DNA of 64,000 nucleotides from a virus (IMGVR_UViG_2582581315_000004:25802-89801), one strand, 5' to 3'; shown: positions 29,721 through 50,002, counted from the stretch's first letter. Notes: generated by a model not told the origin, from the sequence alone. Translations and numbers: made by a program.

Positions 29721-29797
29721 AGCAGGGTGGAGCAGCTCGGTAGCTCGTCAGGCTCATAACCTGAAGGCCGCAGGTTCAAATCCTGCCCCTGCAACCA
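29721..29797 (+). tRNA. tRNA-Met (CAU), initiator-like
   Basis: Cloverleaf folds with CAU anticodon. It has the initiator signatures A11:U24, T-loop TTCAAAT and a 1x72 mismatch (A:A). The backbone is near-identical to bacterial tRNA-fMet. Confidence 0.8.
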
Positions 29798-30270: not shown

Positions 30271-30699
30271 GCAATTCGCGAAAACCGGCACGGCGGTACC
30301 GTGCAGAGCCTACTCGGATTAGCCAATCCGAGACCTTTACCATCGGCTCCGAATGGTGGCTCGTTCGGGCATCAGATCTCACCTCGCTGGCGCCGCAAAG
30401 GCGACGGCAAACAGTTGCGATGCGCGATGGTTCGCACGCCTACGGGCGCGCCGGTTCGATCCCGGCTGGGGTCATAATGGTCGGTTCGAGTCCGACTGCA
30501 TCGCATTCAAACATCCGCCGGCGCCGGCGGATCAGAGCGGAAGCAGTTCAGGCGTGGCTGAGAGCAATTGGACGGATGATAGTCGAGGCGCCGATGTCGC
30601 CGAAGCAAACCCCGGATAGAAATGCCTCCCTGCTTCCGCTCGCAGCAATCATATGGCGCCATCACGCGTACCATCAGTTCCAACCATCGGGAAGCTAGG

Positions 30700-36835: not shown

Positions 36836-37076
36836 TCTGAGATGGGAGCCGGGTGGCATAATACCGAATTCGCTGGAGGCAAAATCCGGCAATGGTACCG
36901 TCGCAACGATTTTCGTACTCGATAGCGGTCGGTTCAAATGGAAAATCGAGGCAGTCCGGATGCATTATCTCGGGAACGCCTATGGAGAAACGGCTCGAAT
37001 GTCCACCGCCAAACGAGCGATCGAGCGAAACTGGCGACGATGGCTTGGGCATTACGGATTGGCTCAAAATGTCTGA
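36825..37076 (+). CDS. hypothetical protein
   Basis: Internal ATG of the longer ORF that starts at 36600. Confidence 0.35.
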   Translation: MNGDLRWEPGGIIPNSLEAKSGNGTVATIFVLDSGRFKWKIEAVRMHYLGNAYGETARMSTAKRAIERNWRRWLGHYGLAQNV

Positions 37077-37599
37077 TCTATTCATGCGCCGCTCGGCGAT
37101 CATCTCGACTTGCAAGCTCTACCGCTATGAGCTCCGGCGCATCTGGAATGACCGGCTTCCGCTCCTCGTCGTCTGCATGCTCAATCCGAGCACGGCTGAT
37201 GACGAGAAGGAGGACATGACACTCCTGGCGTTGATCCACTTCGCCACGCTCTGGGGATATGGCGGCCTGCTGGTCGTCAACCTCTACGGCTACCGGTCGT
37301 CCAAGCCGACCGAGATGTTCGCACGGGGGCAGAAGGCCTTCGGGCCTGACAACGACAATTATATCAAAGCCGCGATCGAGTACGCCGCGGCCAATGGCGG
37401 CAGGATGCTGGCTGCTTGGGGCAATGACGGCCACAAAGGCGGTTATTGCACCTATGTTGCCCAGCTGGCGCGCGAGGAGCGCGTAGCTCTCGTGTGCCTT
37501 GGGACGACGAATTCAGGGCAGCCAAAGCACCCTATGGCGCGCGGCAAGCATCGCATTCCCCGCGATCAGATGCCGATAGTTTGGAGGGAGTCGGCATGA
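37069..37599 (+). CDS. DUF1643-family protein
   Basis: CKLYRYELRRIWNDRLPLLVVCMLNPSTADDEKEDMT fits the DUF1643 signature. Confidence 0.5.
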   Translation: MSDLFMRRSAIISTCKLYRYELRRIWNDRLPLLVVCMLNPSTADDEKEDMTLLALIHFATLWGYGGLLVVNLYGYRSSKPTEMFARGQKAFGPDNDNYIKAAIEYAAANGGRMLAAWGNDGHKGGYCTYVAQLAREERVALVCLGTTNSGQPKHPMARGKHRIPRDQMPIVWRESA

Positions 37600-38121: not shown

Positions 38122-38350
38122 GACCAAGAGAGTCGCCATGGCGATCGCTTGGCATCACTGTGATCGCAAACGATGGCTTGGACATTGCACGAAGGAGCAG
38201 CGAAACGACTATTTCGCCGCGCATGAATGGCAAACGTTCGTGCCGGCTGCCGTCGGCGCCATCGCTGCGCTGGAAGGTTCGAGAACTATGAAGCCCGGTG
38301 ATGACCAGGTCCGCGTCAATACTCTGCTTGTTGGAGAGCATCATGACTGA
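38099..38350 (+). CDS. hypothetical protein
   Basis: 83-aa ORF. Confidence 0.4.
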   Translation: MNRMIDDRTKRVAMAIAWHHCDRKRWLGHCTKEQRNDYFAAHEWQTFVPAAVGAIAALEGSRTMKPGDDQVRVNTLLVGEHHD

Positions 38351-39701
38351 AATCACTGGCAAGGATCTGATTGACGCCGGCGCCAAGCCAGGCAAGTGGT
38401 TCAAGGCGGCAATCGAGTGCGCCAACAAGTTGATTAGCGAGGGTAGCGAACGCGATAAGGTCATCGCCGCGACTATCCTGGAATTTGAGCCGCTGGCTCA
38501 TCTCCCATTGCGATCGTTCCGGCCGAGTTTCTACATGAACATTCGAGCTGAGAATGAGCATGAGGCCAACAACGTCGATTCCGTCTATCTGACAATGGCG
38601 GAAGTGATGCGCACGCCGATGGTGCAGGCCGGGGCGGTGATGCCTGATGCCTGCCCGGCCGGTCCGCTCGGCACAATTCCGGTCGGCGGCGTCGTGGCCT
38701 CGAGTGCCATCCATCCCGGCATGCACTCGGCAGACGTTTGCTGCTCGATGGCGATCACTATTTTCGACGGACTCCCGCCGGCGGCCCTCTTGGACGCCGT
38801 CCACCGAGTTACCCATTTCGGTCCAGGCGGCCGGCAAGTCGGAGTTGGCGGCGTCACGGAGCTCGACATAGACAATCCATTCCTGCGCGACGCACGTGCT
38901 CTATCTCCCACACATTTCGCGACCCAGGGCGACGGCAACCACTTCGCCTTCGTCGGTAGCATGAAATCGACTGGCCAAACCACCCTGGTTACCCACCACG
39001 GTTCGCGCGGGCCGGGCGCTGCGGTCTATAAAGCGGGCATGCGCGTTGCCGAACGGTTCCGCCAGCAACTCTCGCCAGACACGCTGAAGCAGAATGCCTG
39101 GATACCTGCTGACACACGCGAGGGAGAGCAGTATTGGGCCGCGCTGCAGGCCATCCGCAAATGGACCAAGGCGAGCCATTTTGCCATTCATGACATGGCG
39201 GCTTTGGACATCGGCGCTCGAGTCGCCGATCGGTTCTGGAACGAGCACAATTTCGTCTTCAGGAAGAGCGACGGACTTTTCTATCACGCCAAGGGCGCGA
39301 CGCCGGCGTTTGACGGCTGGGGGGATGATGCCACCGATCTCACAATCATTCCTTTGAACATGGCACAGCCCATTCTGATCGCCCGCGGCCGTAATGCCGA
39401 TAACGGACTTGGTTTCTCGCCGCATGGTGCCGGCCGAAACTTCTCCAGGACGCAGCATAAGCGATTGATGGAGGGGCGGACCGATGCCGAGATCTTCGCC
39501 GAGGAAACGCGCGGCATCGATGCCAGGTTCTATATGGGCATCCCAGATATTTCCGAACTGCCGAGTGCCTACAAGAATGCGGCGACCGTTCGTGCGCAGA
39601 TCGGCGAGTACGGCTTGGCCGACATCGTCGACGAGGTGATGCCGTATGGTTGCATCATGGCGGGTGACTGGGAACAGAACGCGCCGTGGAGGAAGAAATG
39701 A
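38343..39701 (+). CDS. rtcB: RtcB-family RNA ligase
   Basis: MPDACPAG, QGDGNHFAFVG and THHGSRGPG match the RtcB metal- and GTP-binding signatures. RBS GGAGAGCATC. Confidence 0.8.
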   Translation: MTEITGKDLIDAGAKPGKWFKAAIECANKLISEGSERDKVIAATILEFEPLAHLPLRSFRPSFYMNIRAENEHEANNVDSVYLTMAEVMRTPMVQAGAVMPDACPAGPLGTIPVGGVVASSAIHPGMHSADVCCSMAITIFDGLPPAALLDAVHRVTHFGPGGRQVGVGGVTELDIDNPFLRDARALSPTHFATQGDGNHFAFVGSMKSTGQTTLVTHHGSRGPGAAVYKAGMRVAERFRQQLSPDTLKQNAWIPADTREGEQYWAALQAIRKWTKASHFAIHDMAALDIGARVADRFWNEHNFVFRKSDGLFYHAKGATPAFDGWGDDATDLTIIPLNMAQPILIARGRNADNGLGFSPHGAGRNFSRTQHKRLMEGRTDAEIFAEETRGIDARFYMGIPDISELPSAYKNAATVRAQIGEYGLADIVDEVMPYGCIMAGDWEQNAPWRKK

Positions 39702-40234
39702 TCCTTCCTCCCATCGAATTCGATGGCAAGACCGTCACGCCGAAGGGCGGCGTCTATCGTTGCCCACACAAATGCTCTCAGAGCGGATACCCGCAGCCGA
39801 CATGGAAGACGGAGAAGGGATTCCGGAGGCATATAGCTTCCTGCCCGAAGGGGAGCACCTTCAAGGCGGAGGCGATTGCGAAGGAGGAGGCGAACGAAGC
39901 CGACAAAGCTGCGTTCGTCGCATCGCATCCGTTCAAGCATAGCGTTGGCGACACGATCTATTTCGTCCGCCAATTCACGGTGAAGCCATCGCGAGACTCC
40001 CGCGGCCGTCGGGTGAGGTATGAGGACGTCTATCGATTCAGCGCCTGTTCCTTGACGGTCAAGAGTCTGGGTGCCGGAAACTACTACGGCAGCATAGCCG
40101 CCTGCTATCTGGGTGAACACGAGGCGGTGTTTGAGGTCGATGCTCTTCCCGACCAGGCATCAGCTGATCGGATCGCTGCAGAGAAGCAGTCGGCGCACGA
40201 TGAACATTTGAGATTTTCGGCGTTTTGCCGATAG
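39697..40234 (+). CDS. hypothetical protein (Cys/His-containing)
   Basis: RBS GGAGGAAGAA precedes the ATG. Overlaps the rtcB stop. Confidence 0.45.
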
Positions 40235-40241
40235 GAGAAAT

Positions 40242-41270
40242 ATGAGCAACCGCACCATAGTCCGCATGAACTTCGGTAGCCACCTCTATGGTACCGCGAC
40301 GCCGGCGTCCGACATGGACTTCAAGAGCGTCTTCATTCCTGACGCGCGATCGATCCTAATGCAATCCGTCAAACCAACGATCAACAATCACCGACCGAAA
40401 GGCAACGGCGAAAAGAACTATGCGGGCGAGATCGACGAAGAGCAGATAAGCATCCAGAAATTCCTTCATCTCGCGGCCGAAGGGCAGACGATGGCGCTCG
40501 ATATGCTGTTCGCCCCTGATTATGCGATCGTTGGCGAGTCATCATGGGAATGGCGGGAGATAATCGCAAACCGCCATCTGCTCCTGACCAGGAAGTCCGC
40601 CGCTTTCATCGGTTATGCAAGGACCCAAGCATCAAAATACGGCGTGAAAGGCTCTCGCGTTGCTGCGTCGCGCGTTGCCCTCGCGTTGCTCGAGCAAGGG
40701 ATGCGCGATCATGGAACTACCGCAAAGCTGCAAGTGATCGGCGATGCGGTGGTGAAGATGGCGTCTGAAACTGAACACATGCAGATGCTGTCGGACGTGA
40801 CCACGCACGGCCAAAGGGTAGAACTCTGGGAGGTATGCGATCGAAAGATGCCGTTCACCGCGTCGATCAAGAACGCTCATGATATCATGAAGCGGGTTGT
40901 TGACGAATATGGCCGGCGCGCGCTGATGGCCGAAACTCAGCAAGGTATCGACTGGAAGGCGCTATCACACGCGGTGAGGGTGGGGCAGCAAGCCGTTGAG
41001 CTGCTCACGACAGGCCATGTCTCCTTCCCGCTACCCGACGCGTCGCACATCGTCGATATCAAGCTCGGCAGGTTGTTATATCAGAACGTCGCGCAAGAGA
41101 TCGAAGATCTGCTTGAGCGCGTCGAACAAGCCGCGGCAACTTCGGTGTTGCCGGACCGGCCGGACGAAGAATGGATCTGGCGGTTCCTCGTCCACGTTCA
41201 CCGGCAAGCGGTGACAAAAGGCGAGTTGCCGATCTATCCACCGGTCATCCACCAAGGACATCAACCATGA
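40242..41270 (+). CDS. Pol-beta-superfamily nucleotidyltransferase
   Basis: [20 protein letters not shown] matches the hG[GS]x(9-13)DhD nucleotidyltransferase motif. Confidence 0.6.
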
Positions 41271-41767
41271 GCAAAGATTTGGAAAAGCACGCTCTTCGCT
41301 TTGCGACTCGAGCTCATGGCGATCAGAAGCGCAAATATTCGGGCGAGCCATACATCGTGCATCCGATCGCTGTGGCGGAGATCGTGCGCAGTGTGGCCCA
41401 CACGCCGGAAATGATTGCCGCTGCTCTTCTTCATGATACCGTCGAAGACACGCCAGTGACGCTCCTGGATATCAAAGACAACTTCGGGATCAAAGTTGCT
41501 CAGATCGTAGCTTGGCTGACGGACATCTCGACGCCGTTCCATGGGAATAGGGCAGTTCGCAAAGAGCTGGACCGCCATCACCTCGCATTGGCGCCTGCCG
41601 AAGCTAAGACGATCAAGCTAGCAGATCTTATCGACAACTCTGCTTCGATCAAGGAACGGGATCCGGACTTCTGGCGCGTCTACCGCGGGGAGAAGTTCAG
41701 GCTTCTCGAAGTATTGGGCGAGGGGGATGCAACACTGTTGTCCAGAGCGAAGTCTCTTGTTATGTGA
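41267..41767 (+). CDS. SpoT/RelA-type HD-domain small alarmone hydrolase (SAH)
   Basis: [25 protein letters not shown] and LLHDTVEDT mirror the SpoT hydrolase core. 166 aa, close to the size of Mesh1 and other SAHs. Confidence 0.7.
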
Positions 41768-41768
41768 T

Positions 41769-42419
41769 CTAAAACCAAAGCTTCGGCAAGTGATCGAAGA
41801 TCAGTTTGACGGTCTGTTTCACGCCTTCCTCGAGTCCCTTCGTGCTCAGCCACGTCAACGCCGGCAATATTGTTCTGCGTAAGAGTTTGACATCGATCTT
41901 GTTGCCTTTCAGCAGAGTGGCGCCCGACTCCAATTCAGTAACGCGCCGCTCCGCATCTGGATCGTTCATGAGTTGGTTATTGCTTCTTACGGAGCGAAGG
42001 GTTTCCTTAATGTGGTGCTCTAAGTCATGGAAAAGATCGACCATGTCTTCACGGGAGGCGACATGCTCATCGAGCGGAAGATCATTTACCGCCTGACCTT
42101 GATCTCCACTGACGATTGATTGCGCATCATCCATCAGCTCCCAAATGTCTTCGCCGCGCGATACGCAAATTGCTTCGGCTCGCCTCAGTCCAGCCAACGA
42201 CAATCTTATCCGACCCACATAATCGCCAGGAGTGAGGTATCTGTCCGAGCGCAGATCTTCTTCAGTCGGTTCAACCCAGCTCTGGTAATATTTTCCGGGA
42301 ACGTGGGTGGCTACGTCCGATGTAACAAGAGTGAGCGCTAGGTCGCCACCGGAGAGGATGGCGCATTGCACGAGCAATTCGTTTTTGAACTCATCAAGCG
42401 TCAGGCGTCCGTTCTTCAT
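41769..42419 (-). CDS. hypothetical protein (opposite-strand cargo)
   Basis: 216-aa ORF convergent with the + operon. No recognisable motif. Confidence 0.45.
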   Translation of the reverse strand: MKNGRLTLDEFKNELLVQCAILSGGDLALTLVTSDVATHVPGKYYQSWVEPTEEDLRSDRYLTPGDYVGRIRLSLAGLRRAEAICVSRGEDIWELMDDAQSIVSGDQGQAVNDLPLDEHVASREDMVDLFHDLEHHIKETLRSVRSNNQLMNDPDAERRVTELESGATLLKGNKIDVKLLRRTILPALTWLSTKGLEEGVKQTVKLIFDHLPKLWF

Positions 42420-42442
42420 TCACATCACCGGATCTGGGCGCT

Positions 42443-42763
42443 TCAGGTCCGCGGCTTCTTCAGATACCGACCCGGTTGGAATGATCCGTCTTCAGAAGTC
42501 AGGACTGATTTTATCCGTTCCGGCAGCCGCCCGAGACCGTTCAGCTCCTGGAAGGCATCCATCATCTTGTCGAACGCAGCCTGTGCCAACTGGAGATCAG
42601 CTTCACGCCTCTTCTCCTCTTCGATGTTCGCTTGATACGCGATCGCCATATCAATCTCAGTTCTGCGCCGCTCGAGCTCGGCGACGGACATCTCCAAAAG
42701 CTCCGGTCGAAGTTTGCCGACGTCGCCGATTTCGAACTTCTTTTTCTCTTCGATGATAGCCAT
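42443..42763 (-). CDS. hypothetical coiled-coil protein
   Basis: 106 aa; Glu/Lys-rich coiled-coil. Lies upstream of the 41769 gene. Confidence 0.4.
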   Translation of the reverse strand: MAIIEEKKKFEIGDVGKLRPELLEMSVAELERRRTEIDMAIAYQANIEEEKRREADLQLAQAAFDKMMDAFQELNGLGRLPERIKSVLTSEDGSFQPGRYLKKPRT

Positions 42764-43204
42764 TGGTTTTTTCCCTGCTTGCGAAGGTGGATTGAAAGCA
42801 TTTGCCGGCGAAGCGGTCAACGATTGATTCCGCGGTTTCATGCCAAATGGTTATCGGTATCTTGAAGCAATGGAGCGCGGGCTTGTCAAAAAGTTCGACG
42901 TTAAGCGTGCAGAGAATTTGCCAAATTGCAGGCACAAACCGTGAATCAATGAAAATTAATTGTTGCCGTTTTGCCCGTCAATATTCTCCATAGCTGGGCT
43001 AGGAAATTCCTCTAATGGCGCCAGAATCAACAAAAATTAATTCAAAAGATGCCGTTGACCGCTCTGAGTTTTTCGACTCAGATCATAGCCGAATCTGATG
43101 GTTCCGATGGGGACCGAATCAACCTCAATACTTCGTGAGAAGGGGCGACCGATGGGGCCGGAATTGATCATCCGGTCGCTATGAAGTCGCCCCGCGACAA
43201 TAGC

Positions 43205-43278
43205 GCGGATGTAGCTCAGTGGTAGAGCGGCTGGTTTCCACTCAGCGCGCGAGAGTTCGATCCTCTCTATCCGCTCCA
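43205..43278 (+). tRNA. tRNA-Gly (UCC)
   Basis: GCGGATGTAGCTCAGTGGTAGAGC...TTCGATC...TATCCGCTCCA folds as a clean cloverleaf with anticodon UCC. Confidence 0.85.
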
Positions 43279-47693: not shown

Positions 47694-48171
47694 CGGAGGC
47701 TCTGGCAAGCTCTCCGACGCCGAGAAGATTCGGCGAGGCACGTTCCGGCCAGATCGATCGGAAGCAGTCTATGCGGAGCGCGCCGCGGCGAATGTCGTCA
47801 CCGGCGCCTTTCTCTCCGAGATCCCGCTGCCGACCTTTCCCCTCAATGAGTTTGGGGCGGCGACCTACCGGAAGTTCGCTCAGCTGCTTCTTGAACAAGG
47901 AAAACTGACGTCTGTCACGGCGGCTCATTGCGAGTCGCTGGGCATGATCGACATGCGCATCAATGGGAAGATCACGGCCGGGAAGATCCCGACTGCCGAT
48001 GACATGAAGCAGCGCACTTCGGTGATAAGGATGCTCGGAGTTGCAGAAAACGCGCCAGTCATCGCGGGCGGCGGATCGAAAAACCGGTTCGAAGGCGCGG
48101 GGTTCAGTAATTCTCGCTCTTCGCCGTATCGACTGCGCCCATATCGAACCCCTGATACTGGAAAACTCTGA
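47674..48171 (+). CDS. terminase small subunit (P27 family)
   Basis: KLSDAEKIRRGTFRPDR is typical of the P27-family TerS. RBS GAAGGTGCAGC. Confidence 0.6.
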   Translation: MAGNKNSGGSGKLSDAEKIRRGTFRPDRSEAVYAERAAANVVTGAFLSEIPLPTFPLNEFGAATYRKFAQLLLEQGKLTSVTAAHCESLGMIDMRINGKITAGKIPTADDMKQRTSVIRMLGVAENAPVIAGGGSKNRFEGAGFSNSRSSPYRLRPYRTPDTGKL

Positions 48172-50002
48172 AACCGGCGAAGAGGAAGAATTACCAAACT
48201 ACCCTGAGATCGGCCACTTCTATGCGGAGTGCGTCTCTTCTGGGCGTTTGCCGACCAACAGGCTGCTGGTCGCGGCGGCAAAACGCTACCTCCGGATGCT
48301 GGAGATGGCGGATGATCCGAAATGCGAATTCTACTATTCGCCTGAGCACGTCGTCGACTTCTGCCGGTTCGGTGAGCGCCTCCGCCACTTCGAAAGCGGC
48401 AACTGGGAAATCAACCAGGTAGACGCAGACGGCAATCCAGACCCGAGCATCATCCTCGAGCCATTTGAAATATGGATCGAGTCAGCTTGCCAAGGGTTCC
48501 GCCGTCGGCTGAATGGGACAAGGCTTGTCGAGACGGCCTTCGAGCTCATCCCGAGAAAGAATGCGAAGAGCTTGCGCGCCGCTCGCGCCGCACTCTTCGA
48601 ATTGTGCTGCTCAGGAACGCTCGGTCCGGAGATTCCGATCGCCGCCGCGACAGCAAAGCAGGCTGACGACACGCTGTTCGGCGACATCGTTAAGATGGTC
48701 AACAACGACGAGGATCTGCGAGAGAAATACGGGCTTCGCGTCACAAAGGATGAGATCACCCGCGGTGAAGGCAAGATCTTCAAGCTTTCGTCACAAGGCG
48801 AACGCCAGGACGGTCTGAACCCAAGCTTGGCACTTTTCGAAGAAGGCCACGCCGGCGCTGCCAGCGTCTATAAGGTCGTCGACTCCGCTTTCGGTGCGCG
48901 GCCAAACGCGCAGCGCCGGATGATTACGACAGCCGGGTATCGCGCCGAGGGGCCGGCCTTTGATCTGCTGAAGCAAGCAGAGATGGTGCTGATCGGCGGG
49001 ATGGAGGATTACACCCTCTTCGCCGCTATCTATACACTCGATCCGGAGGACTATCAGAACCCAGAGACGAAGGCGATCGACTGGGAACGACTTCTGACGC
49101 GGCCTGAATTGATCGCGAGGGCGAATCCCATGTACGGGGTCAGCCTTGATCCGGTGAAGATCAACTCTTCGGTGCTCCAGGCCTTCAAGATGAGGCCTGA
49201 CAAGCGCGGTGAGGTGGCGCGAACCAGGTTCAACATTTGGACCGGCGCCGGCTTGACGCTGATCGAAGCCGCGGCGTGGTCATCTTGTTTTCATAAGGGT
49301 CTCGACCTTTCGCAGTTCCTTGGCAGGAAGTGCTGGATCGGCGTCGACTTGGGCCAAGTTCTCGATATGTGCGCGATCGTGCTCCTATTCGAGTTGCCAA
49401 ACGACTGCCTAGCGGTGTTCGGCCAGTTCTATCTTCCGGAAGCGTCGCCAACGGCGGAAAACCCGGATCTGATCGACCATTTGGCGCTCTGGGAAGAGCA
49501 GGGCTACCTGTATCTCACGCCCGGTCCGCTGGCCGACCATGATTTTGTCAGAAGTCACGTCGAGCAGTTTTGCCAGATATTCGACGTGCAGGTGATCGCG
49601 TGTGACCCGCACCAGGCTCACAACACTGTCAAGCACCTCTGGGACGGCAACAAACCAGTGATGGTTTACCCGAACAGCGCGAAGACGATGACTCCGCCGA
49701 CTGACGATATCATCGGCCGCGTAGCAACCCAGCGGATCCTGCACGACAACAACCCTGTTCTCTCCTGGATGGTTGGCAACACCCATGGCGATCGATGGCC
49801 CAATGGTTCGATCATGCCGAGGAAAGACAAGAAGGACTCGCCACGCAAGATCGATGGGTTCGTCGCCATGTGCTTTGCAAATGGATGCAGGCTGAACCCC
49901 GATGAAGCGAAGCCGGCCGGCGAGGCGCAAGGCGTCAACACGGATCCTTACTTCCATCGCGGCTTGATTGGATTCGAAAATTTGGAAAATGCGAATGGTT
50001 GA
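48041..50002 (+). CDS. terminase large subunit (start uncertain)
   Basis: Long ORF directly upstream of the portal gene. The open frame begins at TTG 48041 inside terS; the first ATG is at 48297. Confidence 0.6.
   Translation: MQKTRQSSRAADRKTGSKARGSVILALRRIDCAHIEPLILENSETGEEEELPNYPEIGHFYAECVSSGRLPTNRLLVAAAKRYLRMLEMADDPKCEFYYSPEHVVDFCRFGERLRHFESGNWEINQVDADGNPDPSIILEPFEIWIESACQGFRRRLNGTRLVETAFELIPRKNAKSLRAARAALFELCCSGTLGPEIPIAAATAKQADDTLFGDIVKMVNNDEDLREKYGLRVTKDEITRGEGKIFKLSSQGERQDGLNPSLALFEEGHAGAASVYKVVDSAFGARPNAQRRMITTAGYRAEGPAFDLLKQAEMVLIGGMEDYTLFAAIYTLDPEDYQNPETKAIDWERLLTRPELIARANPMYGVSLDPVKINSSVLQAFKMRPDKRGEVARTRFNIWTGAGLTLIEAAAWSSCFHKGLDLSQFLGRKCWIGVDLGQVLDMCAIVLLFELPNDCLAVFGQFYLPEASPTAENPDLIDHLALWEEQGYLYLTPGPLADHDFVRSHVEQFCQIFDVQVIACDPHQAHNTVKHLWDGNKPVMVYPNSAKTMTPPTDDIIGRVATQRILHDNNPVLSWMVGNTHGDRWPNGSIMPRKDKKDSPRKIDGFVAMCFANGCRLNPDEAKPAGEAQGVNTDPYFHRGLIGFENLENANG

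Follow-up and report, generated by a model that had tools for sequence, protein, structure and literature searches.

A candidate phage RNA-repair cassette in which a SpoT-type HD hydrolase is paired with an RlaP nucleotidyltransferase

The 64,000-nucleotide stretch of viral DNA analysed here (IMGVR_UViG_2582581315_000004:25802-89801, referred to below as the window) carries a run of four genes which encode an RtcB-family RNA ligase, a conserved protein (ORF182, the 178-amino-acid (aa) gene between RtcB and RlaP), an RlaP-family nucleotidyltransferase and a small alarmone hydrolase (SAH). The conserved core of this cassette is the RlaP-SAH pair, while RtcB is an exchangeable partner, and relatives that lack RtcB or RlaP still keep SAH. 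A role in tRNA or RNA repair as a counter-defence is likely for the locus, and SAH is plausibly part of it. The specific reading that we favour by some distance short of confidence is that the locus is a phage cassette for RNA (mainly tRNA) repair and counter-defence in which SAH would heal damaged ends, RlaP would refill them and RtcB would seal. The new element is a putative RNA-repair system with a SpoT-type HD protein as its end-processing component; the window is one ordinary member, and the interest lies in the family-wide pattern. The four genes are as follows.

38343-39701, plus strand: RtcB-family 3'-phosphate/5'-OH RNA ligase of the phage type, 452 aa (PF01139, phrog_1075)
39698-40234, plus strand: ORF182, conserved 178-aa protein with a CCHC zinc knuckle (homologues, invariant motifs)
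40242-41270, plus strand: RlaP-family (PF10127) Pol-beta nucleotidyltransferase of the T4 NrdC.11 type, 342 aa (PF10127, phrog_388)
41267-41767, plus strand: SpoT/MESH1-type single-domain HD hydrolase (SAH), PaSpo-like, 166 aa (HD_4, TIGR00691, phrog_990)

The initial annotation of this region had described three translationally coupled genes. The three genes are intact and were placed correctly, but the locus contains four, the conserved ORF182 having been overlooked, and the coupling was overstated. The RlaP/SAH junction is indeed an ATGA overlap in which the SAH start lies on the RlaP stop, and the RtcB/ORF182 junction is also an ATGA overlap; ORF182 intervenes, however, and is separated from RlaP by a 7-nt spacer, where the Shine-Dalgarno sequence covers the stop codon. 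RtcB itself is overlapped by the gene before it, so tight packing is general to this phage.

Pairing of RlaP and SAH across genomes

Loci comparable with that of the window had to be collected by alignment-based search, because locus searches with a single SAH or RlaP sequence gave only 1-3 loci. The resulting RlaP survey comprised 160 loci at 31-75% identity, drawn from 80 GTDB genomes and 80 IMG/VR contigs. An SAH gene lies within 6 kb in 20 of the 160, and in every one of these 20 it is directly adjacent to RlaP, at a distance of -274 to +605 nt; both gene orders (RlaP then SAH, and SAH then RlaP) are seen. Where RlaP is at least 55% identical to that of the window, the fraction of paired loci is 14 of 19, and when all loci are combined the 27 pairs fall into 26 groups when RlaP is clustered at 95% identity and into 14 at 70%. 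A temperate-phage contig and a Rhizobium genome have the pair on its own next to integrases, the two genes overlapping by 1-4 nt, and it thus behaves as a mobile two-gene cassette.

An unbiased clustering of the open reading frames (ORFs) lying no more than 3.5 kb from the 160 RlaPs places SAH first among the neighbours (20 loci), followed by RtcB (14), Ro60 (11), R2K ATP-grasp (10), Metallophos (7), and Hen1, Rnl1 and PNKP (6 each). The neighbours of RlaP are the classical RNA-repair set, in which SAH takes the place normally held by an end-healing phosphoesterase. Partners that are found near the RlaP-SAH pair include a phage RtcB (in the window and in its closest relative, L088), a canonical RtcB (Bradyrhizobium sp. 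Tv2a-2), Rnl1 with PNKP (a Planctomycetota metagenome-assembled genome), Ro60/TROVE and Metallophos.

The two enzymes are in addition found fused. Five distinct proteins of 491-509 aa consist of an N-terminal RlaP and a C-terminal HD_4 domain (PF10127 and PF13328), the C-terminal part being a complete SAH; the fusion is one uninterrupted reading frame on three contigs, and the fusions form one lineage. A search of 50,697 deposited phage genomes for a collinear RlaP-then-SAH pair covering at least 80% of the query fusion (P0214) returned none. Two of the fusion loci have neighbours that may be recorded here. An Rnl2-type ligase (PF09414) with a LAGLIDADG intein stands directly upstream of the fusion in L102:4510-8183 (Logan ERR13655525_13895), and a split PCRF/RF-1 (PrfH-like) gene follows the fusion directly, on the opposite strand, in L101:7001-9508 (JGI 3300063054 contig Ga0604636_0000061). 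The usual partner of PrfH is RtcB2, in ribosome or RNA rescue.

A second survey was made from the SAH side. It comprised 80 IMG/VR viral loci found with an SAH alignment, on low-GC contigs unrelated to the window phage and with SAHs 49-66% identical to that of the window. A ligase of the T4 Rnl1 family, with Pfam PF09511 support, lies 0-900 nt downstream of SAH in 13 of these 80 loci, and RlaP is found near SAH in one. The loci in which SAH is followed by an Rnl1-type ligase are L269, L271, L276, L277, L283, L289, L292, L293, L305, L306, L314, L328 and L342. The genes of L271:5998-7782 (IMGVR_UViG_3300008459_000033) are SAH, an AAA_33 P-loop kinase and Rnl1, with overlapping frames; judged by its predicted gene content this is the heal-and-seal layout of T4 Pnkp/Rnl1, with SAH in the place of the Pnkp phosphatase. 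The order in L292 is Metallophos, SAH, an Rnl1-like gene (detected by tblastn only, with no Pfam match) and an Rv2179c-like 3'-5' exoribonuclease.

The relatives of the window phage show how loosely the remaining genes are attached to this core. L088, whose terminase is 94% identical, keeps the order RtcB, ORF182, RlaP, SAH, so that RtcB stands two genes upstream of RlaP there as in the window; small ORFs lie between every pair of these genes in L088, which means that translational coupling is not conserved. RtcB and SAH are present without RlaP in L091 and L092, ORF182 and SAH without RtcB and RlaP in L090, and RlaP and SAH without RtcB and ORF182 in L087. Among 80 IMG/VR loci with a phage-type RtcB (best-segment identity 47-73%), SAH lies within 8 kb of RtcB in six and an RlaP of the window kind within 8 kb in none, and in deposited phages the distance between RtcB and SAH ranges from an overlap (Bradyrhizobium phage BDU-MI-1) to about 12 kb. 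A fixed triad of RtcB, RlaP and SAH is ruled out by these counts together with the relatives that have lost RtcB, RlaP or both. The proposal that the three genes act together as a tRNA-repair module is accordingly sustained by the adjacency and fusion of RlaP and SAH, but not as a fixed three-gene unit, since RtcB and RlaP come and go.

Two kinds of candidate that might have extended the pattern were rejected. Possible cryptic RlaPs between RtcB and SAH in other phages had no Pfam match or were unrelated (for example a dCTP-deaminase-like protein). Two candidate divergent ligases, a 491-aa ORF upstream of RlaP in L087 and a 437-aa ORF upstream of the ORF182 homologue in L089, have no family match.

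Families and catalytic residues of the four proteins

The SAH of the window matches HD_4 (PF13328) at 7.9e-18 (65.1 bits against a cut-off of 27.2), phrog_990 at 2e-40 and, at 1.4e-28, the N-terminal hydrolase part only of TIGR00691 spoT_relA (positions 1-123 of 687). Its motifs lie at residues 15-24, 31-35 (VHPIA), 54-62 (LLHDTVEDT) and 117-124 (KLADLIDN), and the original description of a 166-aa SpoT-type HD hydrolase carrying the LLHDTVEDT signature is borne out. Stand-alone, RlaP-paired and fused SAHs all share the residues H17, R22, K23, H32, H56-D57, E60-D61, K117, D120 and N124 without variation (alignment A2), and the catalytic residues (the His ligand, the HD and ED dyads, the distal Asp and the R22-K23 phosphate-binding pair) align with those of MESH1, Lmo0812 and Rel. 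The best PDB matches are human MESH1 (4.6e-18), Listeria Lmo0812 and Rel hydrolase domains. Among proteins studied by experiment, the closest is PaSpo of Salmonella phage SSU5 (49% identity, BLASTP 2e-39), the SAHs in the PDB being more distant (P. aeruginosa SAH, 8e-7). PaSpo neutralises five of five tested toxic small alarmone synthetases, or toxSAS (PMC7229694, Table 1), and is reported to strip the tRNA modification installed by FaRel2 (PMC11245113). MESH1 and ATfaRel restore the aminoacylation of CCA-pyrophosphorylated tRNA, an activity which the authors liken to the 3'-phosphatase of T4 Pnk (preprint 10.1101/2021.04.30.441581). By homology the window SAH is predicted to hydrolyse (p)ppGpp, (p)ppApp or tRNA 3'-pyrophosphate. 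The RelA_SpoT synthetase profile has no match in any of the four cassette proteins.

The nucleotidyltransferase was originally recognized by its GS...DxD motif, and this identification stands: GSHLYG lies at residues 12-17 and SDMDF at 23-27, and the protein matches PF10127 at 6.1e-15 (56 bits against a cut-off of 23) and phrog_388 at 9e-87. It therefore profiles as an RlaP rather than as an antibiotic nucleotidyltransferase. G12, D24, D26 and D87 are invariant, and S13 is conserved in at least 90% of sequences, in a 27-sequence RlaP alignment (A1); identity to the nucleotidyltransferases of T4-like, Caulobacter Cr30 and Erythrobacter phages is 38-42%, and no sequence relative turned up in the PDB. 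The activity of the family has been demonstrated only for the RlaPs of P. fluorescens and P. aeruginosa (PMC12776372). RlaP extends an RNA 3'-OH by one or two untemplated nucleoside monophosphates (NMPs) and cannot use 3'-phosphorylated RNA, and with a mimic of cleaved tRNA in vitro it favours the end at the anticodon break over the acceptor end (PMC12776372, section 7). The window protein is by homology a predicted RNA 3'-end-adding enzyme of this RNA-ligase-associated family.

It had also been suggested that the nucleotidyltransferase rebuilds CCA ends, and this suggestion is not supported. The 342-aa RlaP has no match to PF01743 (PolyA_pol, the head of CCA-adding enzymes) at E-values up to 0.1, and because RlaPs add one or two nucleotides and prefer the anticodon-break end (PMC12776372), CCA rebuilding by RlaP is conjecture.

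The identification of RtcB has likewise been confirmed. The protein matches PF01139 at 1.4e-29 (104.1 bits against a cut-off of 27), with only profile positions 139-424 aligned, and phrog_1075 over its full length at 9e-87, and it can be aligned to the P. horikoshii and T. thermophilus RtcB structures. The metal-binding and GMP-accepting motifs are found as D131-x-x-C134, GDGNH200F, H218HGSRG, EH302N and PH361GAGR. H218 aligns with H234 of P. horikoshii, while the equivalence of H302 and of D131/C134 is one of motif position only, the HMMER alignment being weak in those regions. Full-length identity to the RtcBs of Rhizobium, Bradyrhizobium, Cellulophaga and Tenacibaculum phages is 46-54% (up to 56% in the best local segments). 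Alignments with homologues begin at residue 1, in support of a start at the ATG at 38343. RtcB joins 3'-phosphate or 2',3'-cyclic phosphate ends to 5'-OH ends (as cited in PMC7824862), and the window protein is a predicted GTP/Mn-dependent ligase of the same kind. The N-terminal region of about 90 aa (38343-38620, residues 1-90) is common to phage-type RtcBs (phrog_1075) and lies outside the Pfam and NCBIfam RtcB models.

ORF182 is a real gene. Its homologues number nine at 36-100% identity, eight of them 177-198 aa long and one a 104-aa fragment, and they share an invariant C-x3-C...H-x3-C zinc knuckle (C22, C26, H45, C49) and an invariant C-terminal HDEHLxFSxxCR motif. The predicted fold is an SH3-like beta-barrel, and searches of Pfam, NCBIfam, PHROG and PDB sequences gave no match. 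A role as a nucleic-acid-binding accessory is plausible for a protein with these features.

Proposed function and rival explanations

The determination of what the cassette does requires that the chemistry known for each family be combined with the genomic associations described above. The chemistries of RtcB, RlaP and SAH come from the literature on homologues, whereas the family assignments, the catalytic residues and the genomic coupling come from this analysis. We propose that host ribotoxins and toxSAS block RNA 3' ends, toxSAS with a CCA-3'-pyrophosphate and nuclease cuts possibly with a 3'-phosphate or a 2',3'-cyclic phosphate. The SpoT-type HD hydrolase would take off the 3'-(pyro)phosphate to leave a 3'-OH; RlaP, which would act on 3'-OH ends only, would put back one or two nucleotides where bases have been lost; and RtcB would directly reseal simple breaks with 2',3'-cyclic phosphate and 5'-OH ends. 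ORF182, with its zinc knuckle and SH3-like barrel, might serve as an RNA-binding accessory. In the window, RtcB would perhaps deal with simple breaks only, and the RlaP-SAH pair with 3'-terminal lesions.

SAH probably cleans damaged RNA ends and does not only degrade alarmones, because a comparison of hundreds of related loci finds it repeatedly beside RNA-repair enzymes or fused to them. We infer that SAH passes its products on to RlaP and that 3'-monophosphate or cyclic ends are among its substrates. A precedent for the combination is provided by the CCA-adding enzyme of E. coli, in which an HD domain clears away a 2',3'-cyclic phosphate and so allows the tRNA 3' end to be rebuilt (PMC6961547, citing Yakunin 2004). 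A broader generalization may be tentatively put forward, though we hold it to be somewhat doubtful: PaSpo-like SAHs of phages and mobile elements would be primarily healers of RNA 3' ends that supply 3'-OH termini to RlaP and to ATP-dependent ligases, RlaP-SAH pairs and fusions would be a self-contained enzyme which dephosphorylates and refills, comparable with the CCA-adding enzyme and standing in for the phosphatase half of T4 Pnkp, and alarmone hydrolysis and the reversal of toxSAS would be special cases.

Several observations weigh against a repair cassette of this kind. The functions of the window proteins are predicted from homologues, and the window RlaP is related only distantly to the assayed RlaPs, its alignment to PF10127 covering the N-terminal nucleotidyltransferase half only (profile positions 20-147 of 249). 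RtcB needs a 3'-phosphate, so the products of SAH and RlaP are not RtcB substrates; the mismatch between the 3'-OH product of RlaP and the 3'-phosphate required by RtcB is a known paradox (PMC12776372, Discussion). The substrate pocket of SAH hardly differs from that of genuine (p)ppGpp hydrolases, so that alarmone hydrolysis may be its real role or an additional one. Many close homologues of SAH stand alone, with no repair gene nearby, in SSU5 (PaSpo), in marine phage contigs and in phiKM1, which makes the association of SAH with repair frequent and not universal. Inheritance of the four genes is piecemeal, as L087, L091 and L090 demonstrate. Finally, the pairing counts were obtained by tblastn detection with few queries from loci that are phylogenetically non-independent.

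One rival explanation is that independent functions have become co-located in an accessory region, with SAH blunting the stringent response or an immunity based on (p)ppApp or (p)ppGpp, and RtcB, with or without RlaP, separately repairing tRNA. The active-site motifs of SAH fit the hydrolase domains of long RelA/SpoT homologues and of MESH1, the literature treats phage HD alarmone phosphodiesterases as counter-nucleotide-signalling enzymes apart from RNA repair (PMC7824862, PMC12846349), the make-up of the region is a mosaic from one relative to the next, many SAHs stand alone, and 74 of the 80 RtcB loci have no SAH. If the link is incidental in this way, the locus is an ordinary set of known phage accessory genes. 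Co-location of this kind would nevertheless leave unexplained why 20 of 20 SAHs near RlaP lie within about 600 nt of it in both orders, why conserved RlaP-HD fusion proteins exist, and why SAH-kinase-Rnl1 and SAH-Rnl1 cassettes are found in unrelated low-GC phages, and we consider it unlikely.

The version offered by the initial annotation was a narrow defence against toxSAS, in which SAH strips the tRNA 3'-pyrophosphate installed by toxins of the CapRel, FaRel2 or PhRel type, RlaP rebuilds CCA, RtcB counters anticodon nucleases and phage tRNAs top up the pool. The 49% identity of SAH to PaSpo, a neutralizer of the five tested toxSAS (PMC7229694) and reportedly a remover of the FaRel2 modification (PMC11245113), is in keeping with this, as are the rescue by MESH1 and ATfaRel of the aminoacylation of pyrophosphorylated tRNA (preprint 10.1101/2021.04.30.441581) and the presence of a tRNA-Gly gene 1.4 kb downstream, tRNA-Gly being a target of FaRel2 (PMC11245113). 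The removal of a pyrophosphate restores an intact CCA-OH, however, so that no nucleotidyltransferase is needed, and the tight coupling and fusion of RlaP and SAH are left unexplained, as is the pairing of SAH with Rnl1 ligases and a polynucleotide-kinase-like protein. RlaP is moreover no CCA-adding enzyme, and its preference in vitro is for the anticodon break (PMC12776372). We judge this narrow version to be slightly less probable still than a co-location of independent functions.

It is very improbable that RlaP and SAH form a toxin-antitoxin or superinfection-exclusion pair, in which, by analogy with FaRel-ATfaRel and the fused CapRel, the Pol-beta enzyme would modify RNA 3' ends under the restraint of the HD enzyme: the two-gene cassette has overlapping frames, both orders and fusions and is often beside integrases in bacterial genomes and temperate phages, and SAHs are type IV antitoxins of toxSAS with the nucleotidyltransferase fold (PMC7229694), but RlaP belongs to PF10127 and is not a RelA_SpoT synthetase, it is consistently found among repair genes (RtcB, Rnl1, PNKP, Hen1, Ro60), about 1500 deposited phage genomes, T4-like lytic phages included, carry RlaP without SAH, and SpoT-type HD chemistry takes off pyrophosphate and not an NMP added by RlaP.

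The repair cassette, if correctly read, bears on an open problem, since RlaP takes 3'-OH ends only and ribotoxins leave phosphorylated ends (PMC12776372); SAH is a concrete candidate for the missing step. Phage SAHs are now annotated as ppGpp hydrolases or anti-toxSAS enzymes, and their ties to RlaP with RtcB, Rnl1 and Rnl2 suggest that they are members of an RNA-repair toolkit. The natural RlaP-HD fusions and the SAH-kinase-Rnl1 cassette are directly testable reagents. A further prediction is that phages of Rhizobiales meet defences aimed at tRNA 3' ends.

Known systems and genomic context

Systems that combine a phage ligase with RlaP were reportedly described by Burroughs and Aravind in 2016. 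They are also treated by Iyer et al. 2021. The locus resembles these and the Pseudomonas rtcB-rlaP-rtcA operons in having RtcB and a PF10127 protein in one gene string, with the predicted function of repairing tRNA cut by ribotoxins (PMC12776372, PMC7824862). It differs in having no RtcA or RtcR, in the divergent phage clade of its RtcB with the extra N-terminal region, in the zinc-knuckle gene between RtcB and RlaP, and in the SpoT-type HD protein coupled to RlaP. The phage SAHs PaSpo (SSU5) and PbcSpo (PVP-SE1) are alike in being single-domain HD proteins of the SpoT/MESH1 type with all catalytic residues; PaSpo stands alone in SSU5, whereas the window SAH is coupled to RlaP and belongs to a clade with RlaP fusions and Rnl1-linked members.

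The T4 system of Pnkp and Rnl1 (with NrdC.11) likewise sets a healing phosphoesterase, an NrdC.11/RlaP nucleotidyltransferase (38% identity) and a ligase against anticodon nucleases. The ligase of the window is however RtcB, which uses a 3'-phosphate and requires no kinase, and its candidate phosphoesterase is a SpoT-type HD protein and not the HAD domain of Pnkp; L271 is the closer analogue. The class II CCA-adding enzyme of E. coli also combines a Pol-beta nucleotidyltransferase with an HD phosphohydrolase, and the RlaP-HD fusions repeat its N-to-C order, but the families differ (PF10127 against PF01743, SpoT-type HD_4 against the HD domain of Cca), RlaP has no CCA specificity, and in the window the two are separate proteins. 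In toxSAS-SAH operons such as FaRel-ATfaRel, an SAH is again found beside an enzyme of the nucleotidyltransferase fold that acts on a nucleotide or RNA 3'-OH; the neighbour in the window is RlaP and not a RelA_SpoT synthetase, and the context is one of repair genes.

The pairing of RtcB with RlaP, the action of SAHs as anti-toxSAS enzymes and the carriage of tRNAs are all already known in phages. The occurrence of phage RtcB with phage tRNAs has been interpreted as protection from tRNA cleavage (PMC3203893), and the HD alarmone phosphodiesterases of jumbo phages have been treated as counter-signalling enzymes separate from RNA repair (PMC7824862). A link of SAHs to RNA repair, RlaP or RNA ligases was not found in the searchable literature beyond incidental co-mentions, though an earlier mention in Burroughs and Aravind 2016 is possible.

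The window comes from the genome of a tailed phage, and its genes include those for a large terminase (48041-50002), for portal and major head proteins, and for a DnaB-like helicase, a DNA methyltransferase and a dCMP deaminase. The phage probably infects one of the Rhizobiales, as suggested by the nearest phage RtcBs, which are those of Rhizobium, Bradyrhizobium and Mesorhizobium phages, and by the homologues of SAH and RlaP at 65-83% identity in assemblies of Rhizobium, Ensifer, Shinella and Mesorhizobium. A search at the DNA level for close phage relatives gave only about 65% identity, over RtcB alone. A scan for promoters and terminators did no better than on shuffled sequence, and an Rfam scan detected two tRNAs only, with no Y-RNA-like or other non-coding RNA. 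The two tRNA genes are as follows.

29721-29797, plus strand: tRNA-Met(CAT), initiator-like (ARAGORN; Rfam, 62.7 bits; sequence)
43205-43278, plus strand: tRNA-Gly(TCC), CCA end encoded (ARAGORN; Rfam tRNA, 61 bits)

Two tRNAs near the repair genes had been cited as part of the module. Both are present, but tRNA-Met lies 8.5 kb upstream of RtcB and tRNA-Gly lies downstream of SAH past two minus-strand ORFs, and the tRNAs are genomic context with no specific link to the cassette. In tRNA-Met(CAT) A1 and A72 are unpaired, two of the three G:C pairs typical of an initiator anticodon stem are present, and its own CCA is encoded; on these features it appears initiator-like but atypical. ARAGORN also calls a tRNA-Ser(CGA) at 30424-30505, which the Rfam scan at gathering threshold does not report and which may be a degenerate or unusual tRNA.

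The remaining observations concern the genes of other phages and those around the cassette. SAH adjoins ClpP and Hsp70 in an abundant marine phage lineage. The SAH of Komagataeibacter phage phiKM1, which at 56% identity is the closest in deposited phages, overlaps the end of a HicA/HicB pair near an integrase (L005:4391-5570), and no RNA-repair gene is close to it. The window encodes a DUF1643/phrog_3230 protein (about 37081-37599, in the ORF 36892-37599) a few small genes ahead of RtcB; this protein is kept there in L088 and L091 and is adjoined in L091 by a Metallophos phosphoesterase. The two minus-strand ORFs between SAH and tRNA-Gly (216 and 132 aa, 41769-42841) are convergent and match no PHROG family, and the 132-aa ORF is kept in L087 and L088.

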